Below the pieces are notes generated by a model. It made no database searches. It was not told the DNA's origin and saw nothing but the letters and a program-made list of their open reading frames with translations. Below, piece after piece: positions 2,277 through 20,834 of a stretch of 60,585 nucleotides of DNA. Source of the DNA: Thermoplasmatota archaeon. Its GTDB lineage: Archaea; Thermoplasmatota; JAKEGO01. Position 1 is the stretch's first letter, and each line of letters begins with the position of its first letter. The stretch is from positions 1 through 60,585 of the forward strand of contig JANQNK010000016.1 in NCBI GenBank assembly GCA_028279595.1. The letters are read 5' to 3'. A program made the position numbers and the translations under genes.

Positions 2277-2513
2277 TCACGCTTTACGTAAAAGGATCCT
2301 AATATGGTCGCCTGCGTCCTCTACCGACAACAATTCGTTCTTCTGGACCTGGACGAAGACCCGCTGGATGGAAGGGGAGATATCTGGCTCACAGAGGACC
2401 TCCACAACTTGACCGCTCTCCATCGGCTTGATGACCTTGCGTACCTCCATCAACGGTTTGGTGCAGACCATCCCGCGGGCGTCGACGGTGCCGTGGACCT
2501 CGATATCGGACAT
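2277..2513 (-). CDS. tusA: TusA/SirA-family sulfurtransferase
   Basis: VDARGMVCTKPL...MESGQVVEVL...ELLSVED...IRILLRK. The start is trimmed to MSDIEV (2513). Confidence 0.8.
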   Translation of the reverse strand: MSDIEVHGTVDARGMVCTKPLMEVRKVIKPMESGQVVEVLCEPDISPSIQRVFVQVQKNELLSVEDAGDHIRILLRKA

Positions 2514-2569
2514 ATCGACAACCGATGTGATAGGGGGTAGAATAGGGTTTTTATCCGGGTCGGTCCGGG

Positions 2570-3163
2570 TCATGGAGAGGCAGGGTCTGTGGTCCTCCAG
2601 ACGTGGCCCTTGTAGTGGCCTGTGACAGGACATCCGATGCACCTTCCGGCCTGCCAGCAGGAGCACTCGCCGCAGTCGATGTCGCAGGGTGCCTGAGAAT
2701 CCTTTTCATATGTCAACTGTATCGGTGCGATGAACTCGCGGGCCACGGATACGACTATGCTGAGGTCCACGTCCGTCACGTCGGGCCGGGGGCGGACGTG
2801 GTGGTTCACGATGGCCTCCAGGGTGGCGTAGTCGTCGCAGGCCAGGAGGATGGTGAAGTTCTTCGAACCCGTGGTGTTGAACCCGTTGATGAAGAACGGG
2901 CACTCCCCCAGCATCTTGAGGATCCCGGCCGGGTCGGAGGTCGCGATGTCCACCTTCGCCAGATGTAGCCCGAGCCTCTTGACGTCGACGCCTGCGACTA
3001 TGTTCAGGGCGCCCATGTCCTTCAACTTGCGGATCCTCTTGCTGACAGTCGGCTGGGATACTCCCAGGGCCTTGGCGATCTCTGCCTGCGAGGTGTCCGG
3101 CGCCTCCTTCATGAAGGTAAGTATATCGGCGTCGATGTCGTCCAGGAGCGGCATGTTGACCAT
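2570..3163 (-). CDS. Lrp/AsnC-family transcriptional regulator with Cys-rich C-terminal tail
   Basis: HTH LDDIDADIL...SQAEIAKALGVSQPTVSKRIRKL, a RAM-like domain, and tail CDIDCGECSCWQAGRCIGCP. SD CAGGTGA. Confidence 0.85.
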   Translation of the reverse strand: MVNMPLLDDIDADILTFMKEAPDTSQAEIAKALGVSQPTVSKRIRKLKDMGALNIVAGVDVKRLGLHLAKVDIATSDPAGILKMLGECPFFINGFNTTGSKNFTILLACDDYATLEAIVNHHVRPRPDVTDVDLSIVVSVAREFIAPIQLTYEKDSQAPCDIDCGECSCWQAGRCIGCPVTGHYKGHVWRTTDPASP

Positions 3164-3190
3164 ATCATCACCTGTATCCCATTACTCGGT

Positions 3191-3205
3191 GGAATATTAT
3201 ATTCC
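3191..3205. promoter_or_regulatory. 15-bp palindrome GGAATA-TTA-TATTCC upstream of the Lrp gene (putative operator)
   Basis: Perfect 6-3-6 inverted repeat with an AT-rich centre, 28 nt upstream of the Lrp start codon. Confidence 0.55.
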
Positions 3206-3275
3206 GATGGAACACCCTCTAAGTATAAATCATTATCAGATGCGTTCGAGGGCCCGTAACTATTCGGTGATCTTC

Positions 3276-3623
3276 CTAGAATATTACCGATCTATCGGAG
3301 CTGGCGATCATTCCTACGAAGTCCGCCATGGTCCCCTTCCTGACCCCGTCGACGACCTCCTCCTCCGGGAGGTTCCGCTCCTTTGCGCAGGTCCCGCAGT
3401 ACTTGATCTCGACGCCCGCCTCGATCACCTTGTCCAGCCACAGGAGCGGGTTGGCGAAATTGCCAGGGTCCTGCCCCTTCTTGGCGACGAAGATCCCGTC
3501 CTCGAAGAGGAAGACCTTCAGTTCATGTCCTTCCATTATGGCCGTGTGCATGAAGTTCAGCGCCGTGAAGGCACGCTCACTGGTATATGCTGGAGAACCA
3601 AGTCCGACTGCTATCGATACCAT
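3276..3623 (-). CDS. DsrE/TusD-family protein
   Basis: SPAYTSERAFTALNF...VFLFEDGI...YCGTCAKER. Start MVSIAV is preceded by SD GAGGTG. Confidence 0.85.
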   Translation of the reverse strand: MVSIAVGLGSPAYTSERAFTALNFMHTAIMEGHELKVFLFEDGIFVAKKGQDPGNFANPLLWLDKVIEAGVEIKYCGTCAKERNLPEEEVVDGVRKGTMADFVGMIASSDRSVIF

Positions 3624-3649
3624 CTCGAACACCTCGTTTACGGTCTGAC

Positions 3650-4777
3650 TCAATGAAGCCTTCGGGTTATCAGTATTGCCCCGAAGAGTGCGAGGGTCAT
3701 GGTAAGGGCCTCGAATCCGGGGAGGCTCTCGGAACCGTCGTCCCCACCACCCTTACCGATGTGAATGACGTACTCGATGGTCTTGGTCTCGGCTCCCTCG
3801 GAGTCCTCGGCAACCACCCACATGTGGATGGAGTAGCCCTCCTTGAACTTCCCGATGTCCGCGGAGTAGGTCCCGCCATCGTTCGTCATCTGGATCACCT
3901 CCTCCCTGAGGCAGGTGTCCCCTGAGCAGGCCGCCACCTCGACGGTCACGTTCGCAACGTCCCCCTCCACCGGTACCGAGACGGTGATCCTCTCCCCGGC
4001 CCCCGGATGCACCGGTTCCCAGGATACGTTCCCCATCAAAAGGTCCGCATACGTCTCCGTGGACGCGGTCTGGAGGCCGTATCCGGTAAGCGAGTCGTAG
4101 ACGGCTCCGATCACGATCAGGTTCGACAGGTCGCAGTCCGAGGCATCCCACGTGGTGCTCTCGCTCTGCTCGGTCTGGCTATAGAGCGTGATGTCCTTGT
4201 CGAAGGCGTAGTCCACGAATCCGTATGGAATAGATTCATTGTGGAGGTTCTTGTATCTCGAGATGGGTTCGACCATCGCGACCTTGAGGTTGACGTCCTG
4301 CCATGGCCACGTGGTCCCGGTGTAGGTGGCGCTGTAGCCGACCCGTACGTTCCCATCCCCTTCGTCCTCGAGCGAAACGGTAAGTGTTATCGGCGCTACG
4401 TTCCTCTCACCGCAGGCCTCGATGTGACCCTCGTATGAGTCAGGGTTCCCTGTCCGGTCCTCCCTGTAGTCGCCGTCGAATATTGCTGATGGATAAGAGT
4501 TGACCGCATAATCGTCGCCTCTGGCCTCGGCCTCGTCGTTGACGTCGGTGACCATTGACATGAAGTGGTAGTTCTGCTTATAGATCAGGTTGAGCCGGGC
4601 GGCCTCGACCTCGCCGTCGGGGCAGTACTGGCACCACGTCGTCACGAAGAGCTCCAGTACGACGGAGTGCGAGAAGTTGTCTCCGGGATCCTCGGGCTCG
4701 GCGGCCTGGGCCGGACTGACAAGGAGCAGACAGACGATCGCCATCATCAACAGAGCAAACCATCTCATGGTACTCAC
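3650..4777 (-). CDS. secreted thioredoxin-fold (CxxC) protein with PGF-CTERM archaeosortase signal
   Basis: Signal peptide, motif LELFVTTWCQYC, and a C-terminal LPGF followed by a TM helix and RR. Confidence 0.75.
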   Translation of the reverse strand: MSTMRWFALLMMAIVCLLLVSPAQAAEPEDPGDNFSHSVVLELFVTTWCQYCPDGEVEAARLNLIYKQNYHFMSMVTDVNDEAEARGDDYAVNSYPSAIFDGDYREDRTGNPDSYEGHIEACGERNVAPITLTVSLEDEGDGNVRVGYSATYTGTTWPWQDVNLKVAMVEPISRYKNLHNESIPYGFVDYAFDKDITLYSQTEQSESTTWDASDCDLSNLIVIGAVYDSLTGYGLQTASTETYADLLMGNVSWEPVHPGAGERITVSVPVEGDVANVTVEVAACSGDTCLREEVIQMTNDGGTYSADIGKFKEGYSIHMWVVAEDSEGAETKTIEYVIHIGKGGGDDGSESLPGFEALTMTLALFGAILITRRLH

Positions 4778-4934
4778 CCTACGAAATCACATTTCTCGGA
4801 CTCTATAAGAATCTATTGATACGCTTTTCCCGAACCTCGGATGGGCCAGTGGTCTGTGCGGAATATGCCACAGTTACGACAATTTACCACAAAATATTAA
4901 TCAGAGGGTCCGGATGGCCCAGGGAGGAATCGTT

Positions 4935-6371
4935 ATGGCGAACGTTGTCGGCGTCAAGAAGAACCTGCTCCTGGTCAAGATGCTCAAGCACAAGGAGGTC
5001 CGCGATCTCCCCAGGGAGTTCCTCTTCTACCTGAGGGAGCAGATGAAGCACGAGAAGTTCGTGAAGATCGCCGTCGACCACCCGAGGTTCGGCAACATCG
5101 ACCACACATACGTTCTAAACAGCCAGGTACCTCCCTATCCCAGTCCCGCTTTCACTCAGTTCCTGAAGGTCGGGAACAACGTCAGGAACGGGACCACGGC
5201 CCCGTCCTCGTGTCACATCGCCATAACCAACAGGTGCCCTTACGACTGCTGGCACTGCAGCAACGGCAACCGCGCCGAGTCGGACGACCTGGACATCGAC
5301 CTCCTGAAGAGATCGATCGCCAAGCTCCAGGACATGGGGAACAGCCTCATCGGGATAACCGGCGGCGAACCCCTGGTCAGGGACGACCTCGAGGAGATCA
5401 TATCAGCGATAGACGAGCGTTCAGTGGTCATGCTGTTCACGACCGGATACGGTCTGACGCCCGAGAGGGTCCAGAAGCTCAAGGAGGCCGGCCTGTTCTA
5501 CGCGGTGGTCTCCGTCGACCACTTCAGACCGGAGGAGCACGACAAGCTGCGCGGATACGAGGGTTCGCACAAGATCGCCATCGACGCCATCAAGATGTTC
5601 AGGGAGGCTGGACTGTACACGGTCGCGTCCTCCGTTCCACCGATCCCGATGATCGACGCGGGCGAGATGTTCGAGTTCGTCGATTACCTGAAGGACCTGG
5701 GCGTCCACGAGATCCGCTTCCTCGCTCCGATCCCGACGGGCAAGATCGTCGGACAGCGCGACCTCCGCTGGAAGAGGGACCAGGCCAAGGTCATGGCAGA
5801 GGTCCACGAGAGATACAACGCAGACAAGGAATATCCACGCGTGACCGTGTTCGGTTACATCGAGAGCGAATCCTTCCTCGGATGCTGTGCAGGGACGTTC
5901 CACATGTTCATCGAGAACGACGGCACTGTCACACCGTGCGACATGATACCGCTCAACTTCGGCAACATCGAGTCATGCGGCGTCGAGAAGGCCTACAACA
6001 GGATGGCGGGCGTGTTCCGCAACCCGCGGTACGACTGCTTCCTCCGGGCCGCCGTAACCCTCGTCGGGAAGGCGTACGAGGAGGAGGGCACACTTCCGCT
6101 CAGCCGCGAGAAGTCGATGGAGATCGCCGACAGGGTCAAGAACACGCGCATGTCCGAGTGCTTCCAGCAGCTCAAGATGCCCTACACCTGGACCGAGCAG
6201 GAGATCAAGGGTGGAAAGGCCTCCTACGGCGATTCAGGCGGATGCATGGGCTCACTCAAGGACGAGGAGCCCGCCGGTACCGGCGGCGGCTGCATGGGCG
6301 CCATAGCCGATGACGACGAGGACGTCGGCGATTCCGGCGGCTGCATGGGTTCCCTCAAGGACGAGGAGTGA
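4935..6371 (+). CDS. radical SAM protein with SPASM/Twitch-like region and C-terminal GGCMG repeats
   Basis: CPYDCWHC (CxxxCxxC), ITGGEP, and CCAGTFHMFIENDGTVTPC. SD GGAGG precedes ATG 4935. Confidence 0.9.
   Translation: MANVVGVKKNLLLVKMLKHKEVRDLPREFLFYLREQMKHEKFVKIAVDHPRFGNIDHTYVLNSQVPPYPSPAFTQFLKVGNNVRNGTTAPSSCHIAITNRCPYDCWHCSNGNRAESDDLDIDLLKRSIAKLQDMGNSLIGITGGEPLVRDDLEEIISAIDERSVVMLFTTGYGLTPERVQKLKEAGLFYAVVSVDHFRPEEHDKLRGYEGSHKIAIDAIKMFREAGLYTVASSVPPIPMIDAGEMFEFVDYLKDLGVHEIRFLAPIPTGKIVGQRDLRWKRDQAKVMAEVHERYNADKEYPRVTVFGYIESESFLGCCAGTFHMFIENDGTVTPCDMIPLNFGNIESCGVEKAYNRMAGVFRNPRYDCFLRAAVTLVGKAYEEEGTLPLSREKSMEIADRVKNTRMSECFQQLKMPYTWTEQEIKGGKASYGDSGGCMGSLKDEEPAGTGGGCMGAIADDDEDVGDSGGCMGSLKDEE
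6228..6368 (+). repeat. intragenic triple repeat GDSGGCMGSLKDEE / GTGGGCMGAIADDDE / GDSGGCMGSLKDEE
   Basis: Copies 1 (6228-6269) and 3 (6327-6368) are identical in protein and differ at 4 synonymous codons. Confidence 0.9.
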
Positions 6372-6492
6372 ATCCACCGAATAACAGTTTCAGACCTTTT
6401 AGCTACGGCGCTCGACCGCGGACCGAAGGGGCGGTCAACGCGTATCGAATCCTATGCGATGGGCCTTCGATGTCCGAAAAAACTGCCGTCAC

Positions 6493-7485
6493 TCAGTATG
6501 CTCTCGTCAGGATCGTCTCGACGGCCAGCTCGAGCCTGTCCCGGTATTCCGTCTCCGGAAGTCTGTGGAGTGCCTCGACGCACTTCTCGGCCAGGTCCTC
6601 GGCGTACTCGTATGCGTAGTCGACGGCCTTCGCCTTCTCGATGAGCTCGATGGCGCGGGCGATGTCCCTCTCGGAATGCTGTCTCGAGGTGAGTATCCTG
6701 ACCAGCTCGTCGTGGTCCTCGCCCTGCAGCACCTCCATGGCCCGTATGGCGAGTATCGTCACCTGCCCCTCGCGGATGTCGGATCCCACCGGCTTTCCCG
6801 TCTTCCCGACGTCTCCCCTGATGTCGAGGATGTCGTCGGTGACCTGGAACACCTGGCCCACGAGGTCGCCGTACTCAACGATGGCGTCCAGCTGGTCCTC
6901 GTCAGCGTCGCCCAGCCATGCGCCCACCCTCAGGCTTCCCCTGATGAGCGCGGCGGTCTTCTTCTGGATGATCTCCTCGTACAGGTCCCTGCCCATGTGG
7001 ACGTGGAACTTGTTCTCGTTCTGGATGACCTCGCCCATCGCCAGGTCTCCGCAGGCATCGGCGATCATCTGGATGACCTCCTGCGGATACCGCCCACCGA
7101 TCTCGAAGGCCTTGACGAAGAGATAGTCGCCGGCTACGAGTGCCTTGATGTGGCCGTACTGACGGTTCGTCGTCAGTATCCCGCGCCGCATGTCGGCGCC
7201 GTCGTTTATGTCGTCGTGGATGAGCGATGCCGTATGGATGAACTCGATGGCAGCGGAGATCGGGACGACCTTGTCGATATTCTCCCCACCCACCGCCTTG
7301 AAGGCGACGATGAGGAGCGCCGGCCTGATCCGTTTTCCCCCGACCCTGATGAGGTAGGACGCTATCTCGTCGAGCTTGGAGTCCGATCCGATGTGCTCGA
7401 AGATCTCCTCCTCGACGACCTCGAGGTAGCCCTTGATCTCGTCATCGATGAACTGATGGAGGTCCTCCTCGACGTTTATCACCAT
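6493..7485 (-). CDS. polyprenyl diphosphate synthase (trans-prenyltransferase)
   Basis: GGKRIRP, FARM HDDIND, RRG, KKT, and SARM FQVTDDILD. Confidence 0.95.
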   Translation of the reverse strand: MVINVEEDLHQFIDDEIKGYLEVVEEEIFEHIGSDSKLDEIASYLIRVGGKRIRPALLIVAFKAVGGENIDKVVPISAAIEFIHTASLIHDDINDGADMRRGILTTNRQYGHIKALVAGDYLFVKAFEIGGRYPQEVIQMIADACGDLAMGEVIQNENKFHVHMGRDLYEEIIQKKTAALIRGSLRVGAWLGDADEDQLDAIVEYGDLVGQVFQVTDDILDIRGDVGKTGKPVGSDIREGQVTILAIRAMEVLQGEDHDELVRILTSRQHSERDIARAIELIEKAKAVDYAYEYAEDLAEKCVEALHRLPETEYRDRLELAVETILTRAY

Positions 7486-7583
7486 TATGTGACCTCGAAA
7501 AGGGCCAGATTATTTAATCATATTGAAAACGGACGTTACGTTCGGTGGGAAAGATTTTATCGTTCCCGGGCGATGCGGTCGAC

Positions 7584-8198
7584 ATGAGGGGTCCCACCGG
7601 CATGATCATCGTGGCCGCGATAGGCCTGGCCATGACCTCTGCTGGATTCGTCCTTGTCAGCGGAGGGATCATCCTCCTAGGCCTCTGCGTCCTTCTGGCG
7701 GTATGCATCAAGGGAATGGACCAAGCGGTCGATCTCGATTCGATGGCCAGGCACCGCAGGATGGCCTATCCGCTGGCGATAGGTGTGCCGGTGATAACTG
7801 GGTATCTGGCCCTTCATCACGACCCGGTCTTCGGAATGGTCCTCGGTACAGCGATCGGACTGCTCATCGCCGGCAAGTGGGACCACCCGGCATTCTTCGT
7901 CGCCGGGATCGGGTTCATCCTGTTCATGCTCGCCTTTGTGTTGGTGGCCCAGGTTCCGATCGCCATCACATCGTACTACCTCATACCCATGGCTGCGGCA
8001 GGGAATTGGCTAGACGAGTTCTCCCACGAGAGGACAGCGGGCAAGGGGCTTCCGGGATCGGTGTTCCAGCACCGCCCGATCCTCAAGGTCGTCGGCCTGA
8101 TGGCCGTCCTCATCGGCTTCGCGGAATGGATACATCTCGGCGGACTGCTCGCGTTCGACATATCGTATGACGCGATCGCGCTCACGTGGAGGGATTGA
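7584..8198 (+). CDS. multi-pass membrane protein of unknown function
   Basis: About 7 hydrophobic segments with polar motifs (GKWDH, LDEFSHE, HRPILK, FDISYD). A TATA-like element at about 7551-7560 supports ATG 7584. Confidence 0.7.
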   Translation: MRGPTGMIIVAAIGLAMTSAGFVLVSGGIILLGLCVLLAVCIKGMDQAVDLDSMARHRRMAYPLAIGVPVITGYLALHHDPVFGMVLGTAIGLLIAGKWDHPAFFVAGIGFILFMLAFVLVAQVPIAITSYYLIPMAAAGNWLDEFSHERTAGKGLPGSVFQHRPILKVVGLMAVLIGFAEWIHLGGLLAFDISYDAIALTWRD

Positions 8199-8942
8199 AT
8201 GCCCATCGAATGGCACGAGGACGATGACCTGTATGCCGCGCTGGCCCCACTTTACTTCAACGAGGACAGGATAAGGCATGCCCGCAGGGAGGCAGGCCAT
8301 GTGATAGACCTCCTCATGCTCGAGGGCGGGGCACGTGTGCTCGACCTGGCCTGCGGTATCGGAAGGCACTCCCTCGAACTGTCCCGCCGGGGATTCGAGG
8401 TCACGGCCCTCGACCGGACATCCCAGTACATCGACACGGCGAGGGAGATGGCCCTCGTCGAGGGCCTGGACTTCGAGTTCATAGTGGGCGACATGAGGAC
8501 CTTCGAGAGGTCCGCGAGCTTCGACGCGATAATCAACATGCGTACATCCTTCGGCATGTTCGATGACCCGTCCGATGATCTTAAGGTGGCTCGGAATGTC
8601 TGCGCGAATCTCGTCGATGGAGGAGCACTGCTGATCGAGATGATAGGACGCGAGATCCTCGAACGCGGTTTCTCGGGCGATGACGAGATCACCATCGACG
8701 ACGTGACCTACCGTGAATCACGGTCCCTGGCGGGCGACGGAGGGTCCATAGTGAACCGCCTGACCATCGAGGGTCCGGAAGGTCCGATCGAGATCGACTA
8801 TTCCTACAGGCTGTACTCGAAGGATTCGATAACCAGACTTCTCAGGCACGTGGGATTCCGAGACGTGTCCGTCTTCGGCGGACTAGATGGAAGACCCTAC
8901 GACGAGGGCGCCGTCAACCTGGTCGCCGTCGGAAGGAAATGA
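8199..8942 (+). CDS. class I SAM-dependent methyltransferase
   Basis: Motif I VLDLACGIGRHS, GDMR, and FDAIINMRTSFG. Confidence 0.9.
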   Translation: MPIEWHEDDDLYAALAPLYFNEDRIRHARREAGHVIDLLMLEGGARVLDLACGIGRHSLELSRRGFEVTALDRTSQYIDTAREMALVEGLDFEFIVGDMRTFERSASFDAIINMRTSFGMFDDPSDDLKVARNVCANLVDGGALLIEMIGREILERGFSGDDEITIDDVTYRESRSLAGDGGSIVNRLTIEGPEGPIEIDYSYRLYSKDSITRLLRHVGFRDVSVFGGLDGRPYDEGAVNLVAVGRK

Positions 8943-10471: not shown

Positions 10472-10555
10472 TCAGTATATGTTGTAGTAACCGCAGGGTT
10501 TACAGCTGTTCTCGGACTCCCTGAGCTTCGGTCTCTCGTATTCGGAGAGCTTCAA
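10472..10555 (-). CDS. putative RiPP precursor peptide MKLSEYERPKLRESENSCKPCGYYNIY (27 aa)
   Basis: TTG start 4 nt after SD GGGGTGA, with TATAAA at 10595-10590. It carries the YxxPxL RRE-recognition motif and a Cys/Tyr-rich C-terminus, and lies directly upstream of the RRE-rSAM gene. Confidence 0.7.
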   Translation of the reverse strand: MKLSEYERPKLRESENSCKPCGYYNIY

Positions 10556-10702
10556 TGCATCACCCCTTGGGACCGAGAACGGTTTCGCATTTATAGAGGC
10601 TGTCCCTGATTCCCTGAGGGTACATCTGTCCGGCTGGATCGCCGACAGGCTCCTTATTTCGACCATAAACTCTTTTAGAACCCACAGGACATTACGTGTC
10701 AG

Positions 10703-12079
10703 ATGCCCCTTCTGGACGAACTTAGGTCGGCGGCGCCCGACGCGGTGGTCTCTGCGGACAGCGACGACCTGCTGGCTTACCGCGATATCCACGGCGAGTC
10801 GGGCCGGATCTCATGCATCGTCGTCCCGGGCACGAACGAGGACGTTCTCGCGGTGCTCCGTTACTGCAATTCTCACGAGATCCCCGTCGTCCCGTGGGGC
10901 GGAGGCACGAACCTGGCCGGAGCCCTGACACCATCCAGGAGGGCGGTCGCGGTCGACATGAAGCGTCTGAACACCATCACGGTCGAGCCCGACTCTCTGA
11001 TGGTCAAGGCCGGTGCGGGCGCCACCCCTGACGAGGTGGACAGGCGTCTCAGGGTGCACGGGTTGAGGTTCCATCATGATCCCTGGAGCCGGAGGTCGGC
11101 GACCATCGGCGGCGCCCTGGCACTGGACTCCGCCGGAACGCTGTATCACGGATACGGAAGGGTCGGTGCCGAGGTGGTGTCGATGACAGTGGCCCTTCCC
11201 GACGGATCGATCGTGGATGTCGACAACGATCCGGACGGGCGCGGCCTGTCGACCTCAACCTTCATCGGCTCCGAAGGCGTTCTCGGTTTGATCCTCGAGG
11301 CGACCTTCATGGTCCACCCGACCCCTGAGACCTACAGGACGGCGGGATTCGGTTTCCGCAAGCTGGAGAGGATGGTCGACGGGCTACAGGCCCTGGCCGA
11401 TGCGGACCTCCATCCCGACTCGTTCATCGGAGGCAGCATCCCAAGGGCGGTCGCGGCTCTTCAACCGGCTACCGAGAGAGCGATGATGAAGGCGCTCGGG
11501 ATACGCTGCGGTCTCTTCGTCTACTACGAGGGTGAAGAGGGGCCGGTCGGGGAGCGGACATCGGCCGCTGTGAAGGTCCTCTCGAAGTACGGGAAGAAGA
11601 TGCCCCAGAAGTACTCAGACGAGTGGTGGCCGAACAGGCACACCTATTTCGAGGCGAACCAGGGAGCCGTCGAGGCGAACCTGATGACCCACGTATTCGA
11701 CCTCATCATCCCCCAGGACAGTACATTGGAGATGGCCGGCAGGGTCGATGTGCTCGCTGCAGAGACAGGGTTCACCGACGCTCTATCTCACACACTCTTC
11801 ACGGCGCTTGATGCGTACACCGTCGCATTGTATATCGAACCGAACCGGTTCGGATCTCCGGAGTTCAGGGCCTTCGAGCACGGACTCAACGAGGCCGCCC
11901 TCGAGCTCGGCACGGTCATGCGAATACACGGATACGGTTCCCATTTCAGCCCGGACATCGTCCGAAGGTCCCTCGGGGACCGGCTGGCCGAACTGGTCCA
12001 GTCCAAGATCAGGCTCGATCCCAACGGTATCCTGAACCCCGGGATACTCATCCCCGACAGCTCGGAGGTGGACCGTTGA
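10703..12079 (+). CDS. FAD-binding oxidoreductase (GlcD/D-lactate dehydrogenase, VAO/PCMH family)
   Basis: VPWGGGTNLAG, ATIGG, GSEGVLGLI, and C-terminal HG.G...LDPNGILNPG. Confidence 0.9.
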   Translation: MPLLDELRSAAPDAVVSADSDDLLAYRDIHGESGRISCIVVPGTNEDVLAVLRYCNSHEIPVVPWGGGTNLAGALTPSRRAVAVDMKRLNTITVEPDSLMVKAGAGATPDEVDRRLRVHGLRFHHDPWSRRSATIGGALALDSAGTLYHGYGRVGAEVVSMTVALPDGSIVDVDNDPDGRGLSTSTFIGSEGVLGLILEATFMVHPTPETYRTAGFGFRKLERMVDGLQALADADLHPDSFIGGSIPRAVAALQPATERAMMKALGIRCGLFVYYEGEEGPVGERTSAAVKVLSKYGKKMPQKYSDEWWPNRHTYFEANQGAVEANLMTHVFDLIIPQDSTLEMAGRVDVLAAETGFTDALSHTLFTALDAYTVALYIEPNRFGSPEFRAFEHGLNEAALELGTVMRIHGYGSHFSPDIVRRSLGDRLAELVQSKIRLDPNGILNPGILIPDSSEVDR

Positions 12080-13203
12080 CCGACGCAAAGCGCGCGAGGT
12101 TGTCCGTCGAGGAGGTCCTCTCGCATCTCGAACTCTGCGCATCGGCGGAATGTTCGTTCTGCCGCGATGGCTGTCCATCGTACCGTGCCTTCCTCCTCGA
12201 GTCGAAGGCCCCCCGGGGAAAGAACAGGGTCCTCATGAAGCGTCTTCCGGAAGGCGACGACGGGATCCGATCGCTGTCTACCGTCGCCTACGAATGTTCG
12301 GTGTGCGGCCGTTGCTCCGAGGTATGCATCAGCGGCGGGGATACATTCTCCATCATCCCCGAGATCAGGGCCCGCCTAGCGGAGGAGGGCTCGGTCCCCA
12401 ATGTGCTGGAGAAGGGTGCCCGGGACGCAATGAAGACAGGCACACCATACAGTTCCAAGGACCGGTCATGGGCCGACGGACTGCCAGGGAAGGGCAAGGT
12501 CGGCTACTTCCCTGGCTGCAACTTCATGGCGAACGAACCGGACGTCCCCAAGAGGACCGTCCACCTTCTCGGTAGGCTCGGGATAGAACCCGTGCCGATC
12601 AGCGACCACTGCTGCGGCGGTCCTGCGTTCAACGCGGGGCTCACCGACCTGTTCCACGAGAACGCCGAAGCGTTCATCGCTGACCTGAAGGAGAAGGGTG
12701 TTAGAAAGGTCATCCTGTCATGTCCTGGCTGTCTCAACATCCTCAGGAACGAGTTCCCGAAGAGCGGGGTCGAGTTCGTCCATCTGGTCCAGGTCCTTGC
12801 CGAGGCCGACGTCAGCGGAAGGATCGGCATGAGGGTCGCCTATCATGATCCCTGCAACCTGGGTCGGAAGAGCTACGTCGTCGATCCACCGAGAGCGTTG
12901 CTCAAGGCGATCGGCTGCGAGGTCCTCGAGTTCGCCGACAGCGGTCCCGATTCCGCCTGCTGCGGCGGAGGCGGAGGATTCGCAACGCTGCACCCGGACG
13001 GTTCCGCCGTGTCATCCACCGATCGGGTGACCGAGGCGCTTGAGATGGGTGCGGATGCGATCGTGACCGCATGCCGGACGTGCAGGGACCGCCTTGCTGA
13101 AGCGGCCGGGGACAGGATCCCGGTCTACCTGGTGCTCGACCTGGCTGACGGGACCATCGACGGGTTCGAGTCGGCGCTGGAAGGGGGTGCCGTTCACGAC
13201 TGA
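12076..13203 (+). CDS. Fe-S oxidoreductase with two CCG domains (GlcF/HdrD-like)
   Basis: CASAECSFCRDGCP, CSVCGRCSEVC, YFPGC...CCG, and YHDPC...CCGGGGG. The TTG start overlaps the upstream stop. Confidence 0.9.
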   Translation: MTDAKRARLSVEEVLSHLELCASAECSFCRDGCPSYRAFLLESKAPRGKNRVLMKRLPEGDDGIRSLSTVAYECSVCGRCSEVCISGGDTFSIIPEIRARLAEEGSVPNVLEKGARDAMKTGTPYSSKDRSWADGLPGKGKVGYFPGCNFMANEPDVPKRTVHLLGRLGIEPVPISDHCCGGPAFNAGLTDLFHENAEAFIADLKEKGVRKVILSCPGCLNILRNEFPKSGVEFVHLVQVLAEADVSGRIGMRVAYHDPCNLGRKSYVVDPPRALLKAIGCEVLEFADSGPDSACCGGGGGFATLHPDGSAVSSTDRVTEALEMGADAIVTACRTCRDRLAEAAGDRIPVYLVLDLADGTIDGFESALEGGAVHD

Positions 13204-13771
13204 GGTCGAGATCGAATGGGCTCCTGCATCGGACGCCGAGGAGCTCGCAGACGTCCTCGCTCCCGCGTTCGAGGACTACGTCAGCGTCGTCATCGGCGAC
13301 ATGGACAGGGCGAAGCGGGTCATACCCAAGATCATCCGCTCGATGGACGGGATAATGTACAAGGCCGTCGCCGACGGACGGACCGTCGGTGCGATAATCG
13401 TCACCACGGAGAGGCCGCGCTTCCTCGCCAGGAACGCTCTCTCGATGCTCATCTCCCTGGGTCCGGTCAGGGCCGCCAGGGCGAACTCGATCGCGAAGGA
13501 CTACATGAGGAGCGAACCCGAGCGCCGGAAGGATGAAGGCTGGGTCGAGGCGGTCGGTGTGCTCGAGGACGCCCGCCGGAAGGGCGTCGGCTCGATGCTT
13601 GTACGCATGGCAGCGGACGAGGTCGGAAAGCGCGGGAAGCGGGCGCTCAGCCTGGCCGTCAAGAGGGACAGCCCGGCAGTTGAGTTCTACGAGGGTCTCG
13701 GTTTCGTCAAGGCAGGCGAGTTCGACAACAAGCTTGGCGATTGGTATCGTATGCGCCTGGACCTTCTCTAG
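13187..13771 (+). CDS. GNAT acetyltransferase
   Basis: VEAVGVLEDARRKGVGSML...PAVEFYEGLGF. The GTG start overlaps the upstream gene. Confidence 0.85.
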   Translation: MPFTTEVEIEWAPASDAEELADVLAPAFEDYVSVVIGDMDRAKRVIPKIIRSMDGIMYKAVADGRTVGAIIVTTERPRFLARNALSMLISLGPVRAARANSIAKDYMRSEPERRKDEGWVEAVGVLEDARRKGVGSMLVRMAADEVGKRGKRALSLAVKRDSPAVEFYEGLGFVKAGEFDNKLGDWYRMRLDLL

Positions 13772-13847
13772 ACTTGTGTAACGGATTTCCGGAAAAACTT
13801 TTATAGGATGGACGATGGGTTGTAGTCCCACAGCGAGGCACGATAGT

Positions 13848-15689
13848 ATGGATTTCGAAACGATACAGCTTCGGCGGATCACGACGGTCATCCTGATGTC
13901 AATGCTGGTGCTCATGGCGCTCCCAGTGAACGCGATGGCGCCGGCCGAGGTCTCCCCAACGGCAACGGTGGAGACCCCCTGGTGGGACGACACCGTGATG
14001 GACGAGGACGGGGACCACATCCACGATGCACTGGAGATAACAATCGAGATGGGCGCGTTCATCGAGAACGGCAGGATATCCGTCCTCGTGGACTTCGATC
14101 ACACCCCTACAGCGGAGGACGAGCTCGCCCTCATCGAGGCCGTCAGCTTCAAACCCAGGTTCAGGTTCCACGCCATCGATATCATCTCGGGGACGGTCCC
14201 GGTCGAGTTGGTGGACGACCTCCTGGACGTTCCAGGCGTGGTTTTCGTGTCCTTCAACGGACCTGTCGGGCTCATGCTCGATGTCGCCGTACCCCAGCAC
14301 AACATGCCCGAGGTCTGGGACCTCGGCTTCACCGGCGAGGGAATGAACATCGCAGTCATCGACACAGGAATCGACGGTCTCCATGTCGGCGTCGACGACT
14401 TCGATGACAATATAGTCACATACGATCCGAAGATAATTGCGTTCTACGACGCCATCAACAGCCCGGAGCAGACCGACGGCTCCACCACACCCTACGACGA
14501 CCACGGTCACGGGTCGCACTGCGCCGGGATATCCGCCGGCACCGGTGCCCCGGGATACGACTACGTCGGCATCTCTCCAGGCTCGGCCCTCATCGGGGTG
14601 AAGGTACTGGACGGCGGCGGCAGCGGGTCCTTCGACCAGGTCATGGCAGGAATGCAATGGTGCATCGACAAGCGCGAGGAGTTCAACATCCGGGCAGCCA
14701 CGATGAGCCTGGGTGGTGTATGGCTGATCGAGCTAACGCAGTCCCAGGAGGAGCGACTGACGACCCTCGCCAACACGATGGTCCACGAGGGGATCGCCCT
14801 CTGTATAGCAGCCGGGAACGATGGACTCTACGGGACGATAGGGACCCCTGGTGCCGCCAGGGACGTCATCACGGTCGGAGCTACCGATCACAACCGCGAC
14901 CTCGCGGTCTATTCCAGCAAGGGTCCGACCTACGAGGGACTCATCAAACCCAACGTAGCGGGGGTCGGCGGCGGAGCCGGCTTCGGCAGCGGAGGTGTCA
15001 TGTCCGTCGCAGCCAACAGCGGAGACCAGTACACCGCAATGAGCGGCACAAGCATGGCGACACCGATGGTCGCCGGGATCATGACCGTCATTCTCGAGGC
15101 AAATCCCGACCTCGATCCCTTGACGGTCCGGAGCATCCTCGAATACACATCCGAATACAGGTGGCTGACCGATCCGTCAAGGCCGAACAACGACTACGGC
15201 TGGGGCTTCGTCGAGGCCGATGCGGCACTCGAGGCCGCCCTGCTCGTGGATCCCAGCCTCAAGATATCACTGGACCCGGAACCCGAGAGGCAGAACTTCA
15301 CCAATGACAATCAGACACGTTCCATATACGTCGCCCAGCAGTACGACACCCTCACCTTCAGCGTGGAGGGCAACGCCTCGAACCTCGAGTGGAGGAACGT
15401 CGACGGCGGTGGATGGCGTGAGGGCGACGACCTGTCCAAGGACGACGGGTACATGGAGATCGTGCTCGACGGCACCATCTTCCCCGTCGGCAACCACTCC
15501 TTCTGGGTGAGGGCCACCGGACCGGATGGGGTCAGCAATCCCGTGCATGTCGAGATCCACATATCCGAGGGTCAGGAGTCGAAGGGCTCCTCCGGTGACG
15601 ATGACGAGATGGACTACACGTTCCCGCTCATAGGCATCGTGGTGGTCGTCGCAGCAGTGGCCTTCATATTCGGACGTAAGTCGAGCTGA
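13848..15689 (+). CDS. membrane-anchored S8 (subtilisin-like) serine protease
   Basis: Catalytic triad VIDTG / HGSHCAG / GTSMATP, a signal peptide, and a C-terminal TM helix. Confidence 0.95.
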   Translation: MDFETIQLRRITTVILMSMLVLMALPVNAMAPAEVSPTATVETPWWDDTVMDEDGDHIHDALEITIEMGAFIENGRISVLVDFDHTPTAEDELALIEAVSFKPRFRFHAIDIISGTVPVELVDDLLDVPGVVFVSFNGPVGLMLDVAVPQHNMPEVWDLGFTGEGMNIAVIDTGIDGLHVGVDDFDDNIVTYDPKIIAFYDAINSPEQTDGSTTPYDDHGHGSHCAGISAGTGAPGYDYVGISPGSALIGVKVLDGGGSGSFDQVMAGMQWCIDKREEFNIRAATMSLGGVWLIELTQSQEERLTTLANTMVHEGIALCIAAGNDGLYGTIGTPGAARDVITVGATDHNRDLAVYSSKGPTYEGLIKPNVAGVGGGAGFGSGGVMSVAANSGDQYTAMSGTSMATPMVAGIMTVILEANPDLDPLTVRSILEYTSEYRWLTDPSRPNNDYGWGFVEADAALEAALLVDPSLKISLDPEPERQNFTNDNQTRSIYVAQQYDTLTFSVEGNASNLEWRNVDGGGWREGDDLSKDDGYMEIVLDGTIFPVGNHSFWVRATGPDGVSNPVHVEIHISEGQESKGSSGDDDEMDYTFPLIGIVVVVAAVAFIFGRKSS

Positions 15690-19222: not shown

Positions 19223-19315
19223 TCAAACTGAGCCGATCATAATGGCGATCCCGAGGGTCATCAGGACCACTGACACTGCGAATGCGGCGACCTGCATCAT
19301 TCTCATGCTACTCAT
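19223..19315 (-). CDS. putative 30-aa single-TM microprotein MSSMRMMQVAAFAVSVVLMTLGIAIMIGSV
   Basis: Entirely hydrophobic ORF below the ORF-track cutoff, with CTTATAAA about 36 nt upstream. Confidence 0.45.
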   Translation of the reverse strand: MSSMRMMQVAAFAVSVVLMTLGIAIMIGSV

Positions 19316-19418
19316 CCCATCTTGGCTAGCATCTCGAATGGAAGTCAGGCTTTATAAGGTTAACTTCCGGTGGAAAATCAGGTCGAATCCTTTATATCCC
19401 ATCCTCCAATCCGGAACC

Positions 19419-20834
19419 ATGACGCGGCTGTACAACACACAGACGAGAGAGAAGGAGACGTTCGAACCCCATGGTGGCGAGGTCAAGTTCTACGTCTGTG
19501 GTCCCACGGTCTACAACTACATCCACATCGGAAACGGTCGGACATTCGTGATATTCGACATCTTTAGGCGCTATTTCGAGTGGCTCGGCCTTACTGTCAA
19601 GTATGTTCAGAACGTCACAGACATAGACGACAGGATCATCAAGCAGTCCATCGAGGAGGGTAAGCCCTTCGCCGAGGTCGCCGAGGTCTACGCCAGGGAA
19701 TACTTCGCCGACATGAAGGCTCTCGGCGTCCACAGGCCCACCGTCGAACCCCGCCCGTCCGAACACATTGAGGAGATAATCGAGTCCGTGCAGGCGTTGA
19801 TCGACAAGGGGCACGCCTACGAGGCAGGCGGAGACGTCTACTTCTCCGTCGCGAGCTCGGACGACTACGGAAAGCTGTCCGGCCATTCCATCGAGGACCT
19901 TCAGGCAGGAGCGAGGATAAAGCCCGGCGAACTGAAGCGCGAGCCGATGGACTTCGCACTCTGGAAGGCGTCCAAGGAGGGCGAGCCATGGTGGGACAGT
20001 CCGTGGGGTCACGGACGGCCCGGATGGCACATCGAATGTTCCGTCATGTCCCTCAAGTACCTCGGCCCGACGATCGACATCCACGCCGGGGGGAACGACC
20101 TCGTCTTCCCCCACCACGAGAACGAGATCCAGCAGGCAGAGAAGGTGACCGGCAACCCCTTCGTCCGCTTCTGGCTCCACAACGGATTCCTGACAATGGA
20201 CAAGGAGAAGATGTCCAAGTCCCTTGGGAACGTGACCACTGTAAAGGACCTTCTCGACCGCTATCACCCGATGGTCCTCAGGTTCTACCTCATGAACACC
20301 CACTACCGGAAACCGCTCGGCTTCAGTGAGGATGCCCTCGACGAGGCCGTCGAGGCGTATCTCAGGATATTCAACACGTATCATCAGGCCGTCAGAGCCG
20401 TCGAGTTGATCGATGCTGGCAAGTGGCCGTTCGATGGTGACACCGACATGAACGAAGCTATCGAGACAATGCGAGCGTCGTTCAAGGAGGCCATGGACGA
20501 CGACTTCAACACCAGGGAGGCGGTCGCCGCCGTCTTCGAGTTCACCCGTGAACTCAACGCTAGCATGGAGTCACTCTCCCGGGAGGCTCTCAAGGCAACG
20601 ATCGCGGCCTACGACGATCTCGACAGCGTCCTTGGGATCGTCGCCGAGATACCGTACGATACGGAGATGGTATCCACCAAGGCCTCGGAGCGCGAGGAAG
20701 CCCGGGCCAACAAGGATTGGGCAATGGCCGATTCGATACGCGACGAGATGGACGCAAAAGGCATCTCCCTGCAGGACGCCCAGGGCTACACCAGGATCGA
20801 ATACACCGAACTCCCGGCGGTGGCGTCGAGATGA
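19419..20834 (+). CDS. cysS: cysteinyl-tRNA synthetase
   Basis: YVCGPTVY, HIGN, GRPGWHIECS, and KMSKS. Start MTRLYNT follows TTTATA at 19391. Confidence 0.97.
   Translation: MTRLYNTQTREKETFEPHGGEVKFYVCGPTVYNYIHIGNGRTFVIFDIFRRYFEWLGLTVKYVQNVTDIDDRIIKQSIEEGKPFAEVAEVYAREYFADMKALGVHRPTVEPRPSEHIEEIIESVQALIDKGHAYEAGGDVYFSVASSDDYGKLSGHSIEDLQAGARIKPGELKREPMDFALWKASKEGEPWWDSPWGHGRPGWHIECSVMSLKYLGPTIDIHAGGNDLVFPHHENEIQQAEKVTGNPFVRFWLHNGFLTMDKEKMSKSLGNVTTVKDLLDRYHPMVLRFYLMNTHYRKPLGFSEDALDEAVEAYLRIFNTYHQAVRAVELIDAGKWPFDGDTDMNEAIETMRASFKEAMDDDFNTREAVAAVFEFTRELNASMESLSREALKATIAAYDDLDSVLGIVAEIPYDTEMVSTKASEREEARANKDWAMADSIRDEMDAKGISLQDAQGYTRIEYTELPAVASR

Follow-up and report, generated by a model that had tools for sequence, protein, structure and literature searches.

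The locus analysed here raises the question of whether a very short open reading frame, lying directly upstream of a gene for an enzyme with RRE, radical-SAM and SPASM parts, encodes the substrate of that enzyme and, if so, what the enzyme makes of it. The window, by which we mean the whole stretch of DNA that was analysed (60,585 nucleotides), carries all features of this peptide-maturase locus on its minus strand, as read from the sequence. The elements described in an earlier note, a TATAAA, a GGGGTGA and a TTG-started peptide of 27 aa directly 5' of the RRE-rSAM-SPASM gene, are all present on that strand, and the archaeal origin it had assumed is borne out by two archaeal markers in the window, the genes for an MCM helicase and for the archaeosine enzyme RaSEA. 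The features of the pair are the following:

10595-10590, minus strand: candidate archaeal TATA box, TATAAA, 40 nt 5' of the TTG; read from the sequence, its function putative
10566-10560, minus strand: Shine-Dalgarno-like GGGGTGA, 4 nt ahead of the TTG start; read from the sequence
10555-10472, minus strand: putative precursor peptide gene P0001, 27 sense codons and TGA; by translation, TTG start at 10555-10553 and TGA stop at 10474-10472
10555-10505, minus strand: presumed leader or recognition half, residues 1-17, with invariant L3, Y6, P9 and R12-E-S-E15 (alignment A2)
10504-10475, minus strand: presumed core, residues 18-27, C-x-x-C-G-x-Y-x-I-Y, with the stop always directly after it (alignment A2)
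10424-8949, minus strand: RRE(PqqD)-radical SAM-SPASM maturase P0002, 491 aa from ATG (Pfam)
about 10247-10083, minus strand: PqqD domain of the maturase, residues 60-114 (Pfam, 26.4 bits against a cut-off of 23.4)
about 9959-9480, minus strand: Radical_SAM domain, residues 156-315 (Pfam, 105.6 bits)
about 9248-9054, minus strand: SPASM domain, residues 393-457 (Pfam, 49.8 bits)

The peptide gene ends 47 nt before the start of the maturase gene on the same strand, and the boundary between leader and core is provisionally placed between residues 17 and 18. Taken alone, an ORF of 27 codons is no more than chance would provide, since 117 ORFs of at least 20 aa occur within 9 kb of the window. A scan of the window for sigma-70 promoters and terminators, which was not designed for archaea, found nothing.

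The peptide had been described as uncalled, which holds for the homologues, where it is uncalled in every fetched locus, but not for the window, where a longer ORF is on record:

10666-10475, minus strand: 64-aa ORF call P0274, ATG at 10666, the same C-terminal peptide with 37 extra N-terminal residues

This call is very probably over-extended, to judge from its sequence context, because nothing in any homologue matches its 37 extra residues, three of the homologous loci (L005, L033 and L009) have in-frame stops 3-9 codons 5' of the aligned Met, the window TTG aligns with the ATG starts of the homologous peptides (alignment A2), and the extension passes through the TATA-like box. A search of the protein collection with a 40-codon in-frame reference returned the window's own 64-aa call as its sole match, and no other protein of 22-70 residues sharing words with the peptide was found in the 5.8-billion collection.

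The earlier note had named its test beforehand: a comparable small ORF should be conserved ahead of the genes for close rSAM homologues, and homologous loci without a comparable ORF were to count against its reading. Upstream DNA was readable in seven distinct loci: the window, L009 (from genome G002, of the same order as the window genome), L005, L033, L002, L031 and L003, after grouping of L003/L004, L005-L007, L031/L032 and L033/L034 and of L028, which is identical to L009. In all seven this small ORF recurs just 5' of the maturase and on its strand, roughly 80-220 nt ahead of the enzyme gene in the six other lineages. An A/T-rich TATA-like box stands about 30-45 nt 5' of the peptide start in every homologous locus, and purine stretches resembling a Shine-Dalgarno sequence (GGAGG/GAGGT/AGGTG-like) precede the start in five of the six other loci, L031 being the one without.

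The seven peptides, 27-31 aa long among the family, align without internal gaps (alignment A2) and share 13 invariant positions: L3, Y6, P9, R12, E13, S14, E15, C18, C21, G22, Y24, I26 and Y27, followed in every variant by a stop codon directly after the final Tyr. The constrained positions thus form two blocks, with L3, YxxP and RESE on the N-terminal side and CxxCGxYxIY on the C-terminal side. The YxxPxL leader motif proposed earlier stands in its Y-x-x-P part, which is invariant, and fails in the remainder: the fifth and sixth positions vary among the seven peptides, the supposed final Leu being L, M, A, A, V, S and L. Of the two Cys and three Tyr put forward as candidate crosslink sites, C18, C21, Y24 and Y27 are invariant, while Y23 is a His in one lineage. 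In all 21 pairs of peptide genes, synonymous differences are saturated (pS 0.59-1.21) against pN values of 0.02-0.30. Among the homologous enzymes identity is 47-61%, and the GC content of the loci ranges over 41-59%; mean identity is 72% for the peptide (last 24 residues) against 52% for the enzyme. The back-translated motif occurs in 2 of 401 sampled genomes of the phylum, exactly the two with an enzyme orthologue, and the reversed-pattern control gave 0 hits. Because the amino-acid conservation persists where synonymous sites are saturated, we take the 27-codon ORF to be a real gene, tied to the adjacent enzyme and under strong purifying selection.

The database call for the window maturase (P0003) begins 29 codons later than P0002. 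The C161-x3-C165-x2-C168 motif is invariant in nine members of the maturase family, eight Cys are conserved in the SPASM region (C393, C400, C411, C453, C456, C462, C466 and C484), and a PqqD-like RRE is flagged in the homologues as well. Relatives of the enzyme form a small set at 47-56% identity, after which scores drop steeply. A nine-member profile run against 1.84 billion cluster representatives recovered one full-length protein at 841 bits and two fragments, the next score being 270 bits. By these scores the maturase clade is tight and isolated. None of the NCBIfam equivalogs reaches its cut-off, the best being GeoRSP (174/400 bits), AhbD (167/500), PqqE (148/381) and MftC (141/265), and the closest solved structures, PqqE (6c8v, E 1.2e-29), SkfB, SuiB and CteB, are all distant. 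The nearest outgroup proteins are unnamed RRE-rSAM-SPASM enzymes that score 217-238 bits on the MftC model. One of them, P0128 in L035, adjoins an unrelated called peptide of 37 aa with two Cys, and for this reason the wider clade around the maturase is taken to consist of peptide maturases with different substrates. L035 (37-aa peptide at 2364-2477, plus strand; also 2501-3868 and 4779-6104), where P0128 also has near it a B12-binding radical-SAM enzyme and a 288-aa protein of unknown function, looks like another unnamed rSAM peptide cluster.

To examine the relationship of peptide and enzyme in structural terms, we turn to a co-fold in which enzyme and peptide, each with its alignment, were modelled together with SAM and three 4Fe-4S clusters. 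Its score was 0.82 (0.80-0.84 among runs) against 0.00 for the best control; of the solved complexes 58 of 80 came up to this mark, of the mismatched pairs 2 of 110. The setting lies outside the tool's calibration (a partner of fewer than 30 residues, user-made alignments), and the model could owe the score to having memorised solved complexes of RRE and leader or of rSAM enzyme and peptide, for example those of SuiB, CteB and the lasso RREs. Between runs at least 68% of the contacts agree, and the partner pLDDT is 66 or higher. The contacts with the lowest expected error join residues 3 and 7-11 of the peptide to residues 60-68 and 100-104 of the RRE, and P9-L11 lie in the cleft between its strand beta3 and helix alpha3. 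Peptide residues 18-23 and 25-27 contact the radical-SAM and SPASM parts, so that the Cys/Tyr tail lies in the catalytic and SPASM cavity. Further contacts of the peptide (Q152, H154, N204, K324, R374, D390, R392-A395, C411-Y412 and 461-466) involve residues that are mostly invariant in the family. The predicted complex supports binding of the peptide by the enzyme. The RREs of lasso and LPP systems bind the leader motif [Y/W]xxPx[L/V/I/F/A] (PMC13381572); the present locus would be a case where a lasso-type Y-x-x-P motif is employed by a radical-SAM enzyme, which bears on how RREs discriminate between leaders.

That the ORF is no substrate at all, and instead a chance ORF, a regulatory uORF or part of an unrelated 64-aa protein, now seems highly improbable to us. 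Short ORFs do arise by chance in large numbers in the GC-rich DNA of the window, the gene finder called the 64-aa ORF here and the window peptide has a TTG start; against this stand the amino-acid conservation over saturated synonymous sites across seven lineages, the 37 extra residues without counterpart together with the in-frame stops upstream in L005, L033 and L009, the ORF's own TATA-like box, the peptide-binding RRE of the enzyme, and the co-fold with its distance from the best control.

The only neighbour co-conserved with the peptide-maturase pair is a methyltransferase:

8199-8942, plus strand: class I SAM-dependent methyltransferase, 247 residues, convergent with the maturase, 6 nt between the stops (Pfam, NCBIfam)

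Its orthologues, 36-55% identical, lie convergently beside the maturase in L005, L033, L031 and the P0010 contig, and in G002 the gene is found within 1 kb, on a small contig that holds the last 28 maturase codons, so that it is co-located with the maturase in six of eight lineages. In G001, a 73%-complete genome of the same family, neither a methyltransferase nor a maturase orthologue was found. The nearest characterised relatives of the enzyme, all weak matches, are mostly N-methyltransferases, among them the glycine/sarcosine enzymes, the cypemycin N-terminal enzyme and the daptide enzyme. The methyltransferase is likely to be a tailoring enzyme for the peptide. It is absent at the corresponding position in L002 and L003, where a Cys-containing protein of 130-157 aa (L002 2885-3277 and L003 7574-8047, both plus strand; 42% mutual identity) is encoded 3' of the maturase on the same strand. 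This protein belongs to no Pfam family, and a search for it in the genome of the window gave no match; it could act in tailoring in place of the methyltransferase, or as a partner protein.

Next to the pair, the window and the fetched loci have no conserved gene for a protease, a transporter or immunity, so that removal of the leader and export have no gene assigned to them; this counts against the precursor-maturase reading. Peptidases that are unrelated to one another lie about 2-5 kb from the pair, an S8 enzyme in the window (13815-15689), an M48 enzyme in L005 and a C25 enzyme in the P0010 contig; the loci have no protease near the pair in common, and the S8 protease of the window is not conserved beside it.

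Two other groups of genes in the window were considered as parts of the system and rejected. The genes for a GlcD-like FAD oxidase, a GlcF/HdrD-like CCG iron-sulfur protein and a GNAT acetyltransferase (10703-13771, plus strand), divergent from the peptide gene, are probably unrelated to the peptide system, judging from gene content, because they are absent from all other homologous loci. A second radical-SAM gene (4914-6371, plus strand) is not conserved beside the pair either. It encodes a radical-SAM/SPASM-like protein of 485 aa with no RRE match and an acidic tail (6228-6371) containing three G-G-C-M-G repeats, and together with ORFs of unknown function at 6454-7587 and 7545-8198 and the methyltransferase gene it forms a same-strand run converging on the maturase. 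A weak maturase-like match in G002 that resembles this second radical-SAM gene lies on another contig, unlinked, and the P0010 contig has a divergent rSAM neighbour beside its maturase. Elsewhere, large NosD/beta-helix proteins, 36% identical, are encoded in L005 (5655-7790, minus strand) and L033 (364-2472, minus strand), on different sides of the pair. A cysteinyl-tRNA synthetase gene (19242-20834, plus strand, in the window) lies 5-9 kb from the maturase in both the window and the P0010 contig, a partial synteny that suggests vertical inheritance of the region.

The best explanation of the locus as a whole, which we regard as very probable, is a precursor gene with an adjacent maturase, docking on an RRE, crosslinking of the core and methylation. 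The 27-codon ORF would encode a ribosomally made precursor and the adjacent RRE-radical SAM-SPASM enzyme would be its maturase. Conservation and the co-fold together suggest that the fused PqqD-type RRE receives the N-terminal half (L3, Y6-x-x-P9, R-E-S-E) much as lasso-type Y-x-x-P leaders are received, and that the ten C-terminal residues are thereby fed into a cavity with the radical-SAM cluster on one side and the two SPASM clusters on the other. There, 5'-deoxyadenosyl radical chemistry may crosslink the core, and the co-conserved SAM methyltransferase would then probably methylate the product.

As to the nature of the crosslink, the single guess that we rank first, and put forward as a tentative one, is a pair of nested thioether bridges of the sactionine/ranthionine type from C18 and C21 to the Y24...Y27 segment. 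Invariant Cys residues in the substrates of RRE/SPASM enzymes are most often thioether donors, and the invariant C18, C21, Y24 and Y27 are each three residues apart, a periodicity that is the donor/acceptor spacing of hairpin sactipeptides; these two points are the grounds for the guess. The HMM scores of the window maturase do not favour the sacti- or ranthi-synthases (StsB 123 and PapB 97 bits, against PqqE 148, MftC 141 and AhbD 167). The guess is further weakened, if slightly, by the eight Cys of the SPASM region, which would allow two fully ligated auxiliary clusters, unlike CteB, which binds its substrate Cys through an open auxiliary-cluster site. Behind it we rank, level with each other, MftC-like chemistry and an aromatic crosslink, and the probability that is left falls on some other chemistry.

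An enzyme acting as MftC does on Val-Tyr would oxidatively decarboxylate the C-terminal Tyr and couple it to the beta-carbon of Ile26, yielding a redox-active cofactor head group that is not secreted. We consider this unlikely, despite the invariant I26-Y27-stop of all seven variants and the C-G pair just before it, as in the MftA tail with its Cys-Gly shortly before the end, and despite a tiny precursor (27-31 aa) that is more conserved than its enzyme, the want of a conserved transporter, protease or immunity gene nearby, the housekeeping neighbours and 41-59% GC span, which suggest vertical inheritance, and the 217-238 bits of the nearest outgroup maturases on the MftC model. The window maturase itself reaches 141 bits against the MftC cut-off of 265, below its GeoRSP, AhbD, TIGR04053, NirJ2 and PqqE scores; no MftE or MftD scores above cut-off in the 86%-complete genome; the divergent GlcD/GlcF/GNAT operon, seemingly a partner oxidoreductase, is missing from every other locus; occurrence in only 2 of 401 sampled genomes of the phylum would be odd for a cofactor; and the two invariant Cys and Y24 would be left without a role. 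Nor do we expect an aromatic C-C or C-O crosslink that joins the rings of Y24 and Y27 to a side chain nearby, of the sort made in cyclophane-type triceptides, by PqqE or by the darobactin class of enzymes, with the CxxC serving in binding or as a disulfide. Such a crosslink would agree with the invariance of Y24 and Y27, with the fit of Y24-x-I26 to the three-residue aromatic-x-x motif, with PqqE being the closest solved relative (6c8v, E 1.2e-29) and with the possible full Cys ligation of both auxiliary clusters, but the streptide, WgkB, dynobactin and PqqE models all score far under their cut-offs, the peptide has no Glu-x3-Tyr spacing of the PqqA type, and the tendency of invariant Cys in rSAM/SPASM substrates to be thioether donors speaks for the bridges from C18 and C21.

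A broader proposal on the use of the product cuts across these alternatives: the peptide may give rise to an archaeal small-molecule cofactor, or to a metal- or redox-active head group, for which radical chemistry and methylation would act on the invariant C-terminal C-G-x-Y-x-I-Y. Such a product would serve within the cell instead of being exported, and would be a third peptide-derived system alongside PQQ and mycofactocin. We think this decidedly doubtful, more so than either of the two crosslinks just discussed. It is suggested by the tiny precursor, by a peptide more conserved than its enzyme, by the lack of conserved export, immunity or protease genes, by the housekeeping gene neighbourhoods and by the persistence of the family across lineages of 41-59% GC.

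Whatever its chemistry, the thioether guess included, the peptide belongs to no family that we could find described. No Pfam or NCBIfam model matches it, a match to the NCBIfam HVO_0649 zinc finger (E 0.055, 13/70 bits) being at chance level and discarded, and a literature search with its motif strings returned no match. The statement that the core is not recognisable from any described class is upheld to this extent. A search of genome contigs with the single enzyme gave only an unrelated bacterial match of 21% identity, and scans of metagenome contigs with the enzyme alignment and with the DNA pattern of the peptide gave none. Since JGI contigs carrying the peptide-maturase pair exist, these blank scans of contig collections say nothing about distribution. 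The window DNA is present in one public run only, a coral metagenome that may be its source sample, and the family is confined to a narrow, uncultured lineage of the Thermoplasmatota.

We know of no archaeal radical-SAM-modified peptide of known structure. The archaeal rSAM RiPP clusters described so far are predictions only (PMC12144867). Among characterised SPASM peptide/protein maturases, one from archaea was found, and its substrate is a Cys-rich protein (PMC13692751). The system offers a compact target, with a substrate of 27 residues, one enzyme, one methyltransferase and seven natural variants that mark 13 key residues. New chemistry, or a cofactor as product, would make it the founding case of a new RiPP class; with a thioether hairpin as product, the chemistry would be ordinary and the example the first from Archaea.

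How the system compares with those already known can be seen most clearly from its likenesses and departures. With the sacti- and ranthipeptide systems (CteB, PapB, StsB, AlbA) it shares an enzyme in which an N-terminal RRE is fused to a radical-SAM core and a SPASM domain, and a short precursor directly upstream with invariant Cys; CteB is also among the closest solved structures to the window maturase. It differs from them in its scores (StsB 123/625, PapB 97/340, with SkfB-type models below the top matches listed), in a precursor of only 27 aa with a leader of about 17 residues that is unrelated to SCIFF and other named precursors, and in being archaeal. With mycofactocin it has in common a tiny precursor that ends in a beta-branched residue and Tyr with a Cys-Gly shortly before, an RRE and an rSAM/SPASM enzyme, and an associated methyltransferase, as MftM is in mycofactocin (PMC9679996). 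Where mycofactocin has a separate RRE, that of the window is part of the maturase, which reaches 141/265 bits on the MftC model (TIGR03962); the tail reads [N/K]-I-Y in place of G-V-Y, and the peptide has an invariant CxxC and a further Tyr besides. MftD, MftE and MftF were not found in the 86%-complete genome, where the models for the MftE peptidase (TIGR03964) and the MftD flavoenzyme (TIGR03966) reached at best 94.5/172 bits, on another contig, and 23.5/471 bits.

The likeness to PQQ lies in PqqE being the best solved-structure match (6c8v), in the PqqD-type RRE and in a very short, highly conserved precursor containing Tyr; unlike in PQQ, the maturase scores 148 bits against a cut-off of 381 on the PqqE model (TIGR02109), no Glu stands four residues before any Tyr, and no PqqB, PqqC or PqqF gene occurs in any locus. 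Lasso and LPP systems resemble it in the invariant Y-x-x-P of the N-terminal half and, in the co-fold, in the placement of the Pro and the next two residues in the RRE cleft. Their RREs are discrete, whereas that of the window is fused to a radical-SAM enzyme, and two residues after the Pro one variant has Ser, an amino acid that the published [L/V/I/F/A] set does not contain (PMC13381572); near the pair, in the window and the fetched loci, there is no Pfam family of the lasso cyclase (Asn-synthetase-like) or the B2 transglutaminase-like protease. On these comparisons of sequence the system would not belong to mycofactocin, PQQ, the named sacti- and ranthipeptide maturases or the lasso peptides. 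It does carry the generic features of an RRE-dependent radical SAM/SPASM RiPP pathway, namely the CxxxCxxC motif with its radical-SAM domain, a SPASM domain with a two-cluster set of Cys, a PqqD-like RRE and a co-conserved precursor, and is thus best described as a putative RRE-guided pathway of this known kind, with a precursor and maturase that appear to form a new family within it.
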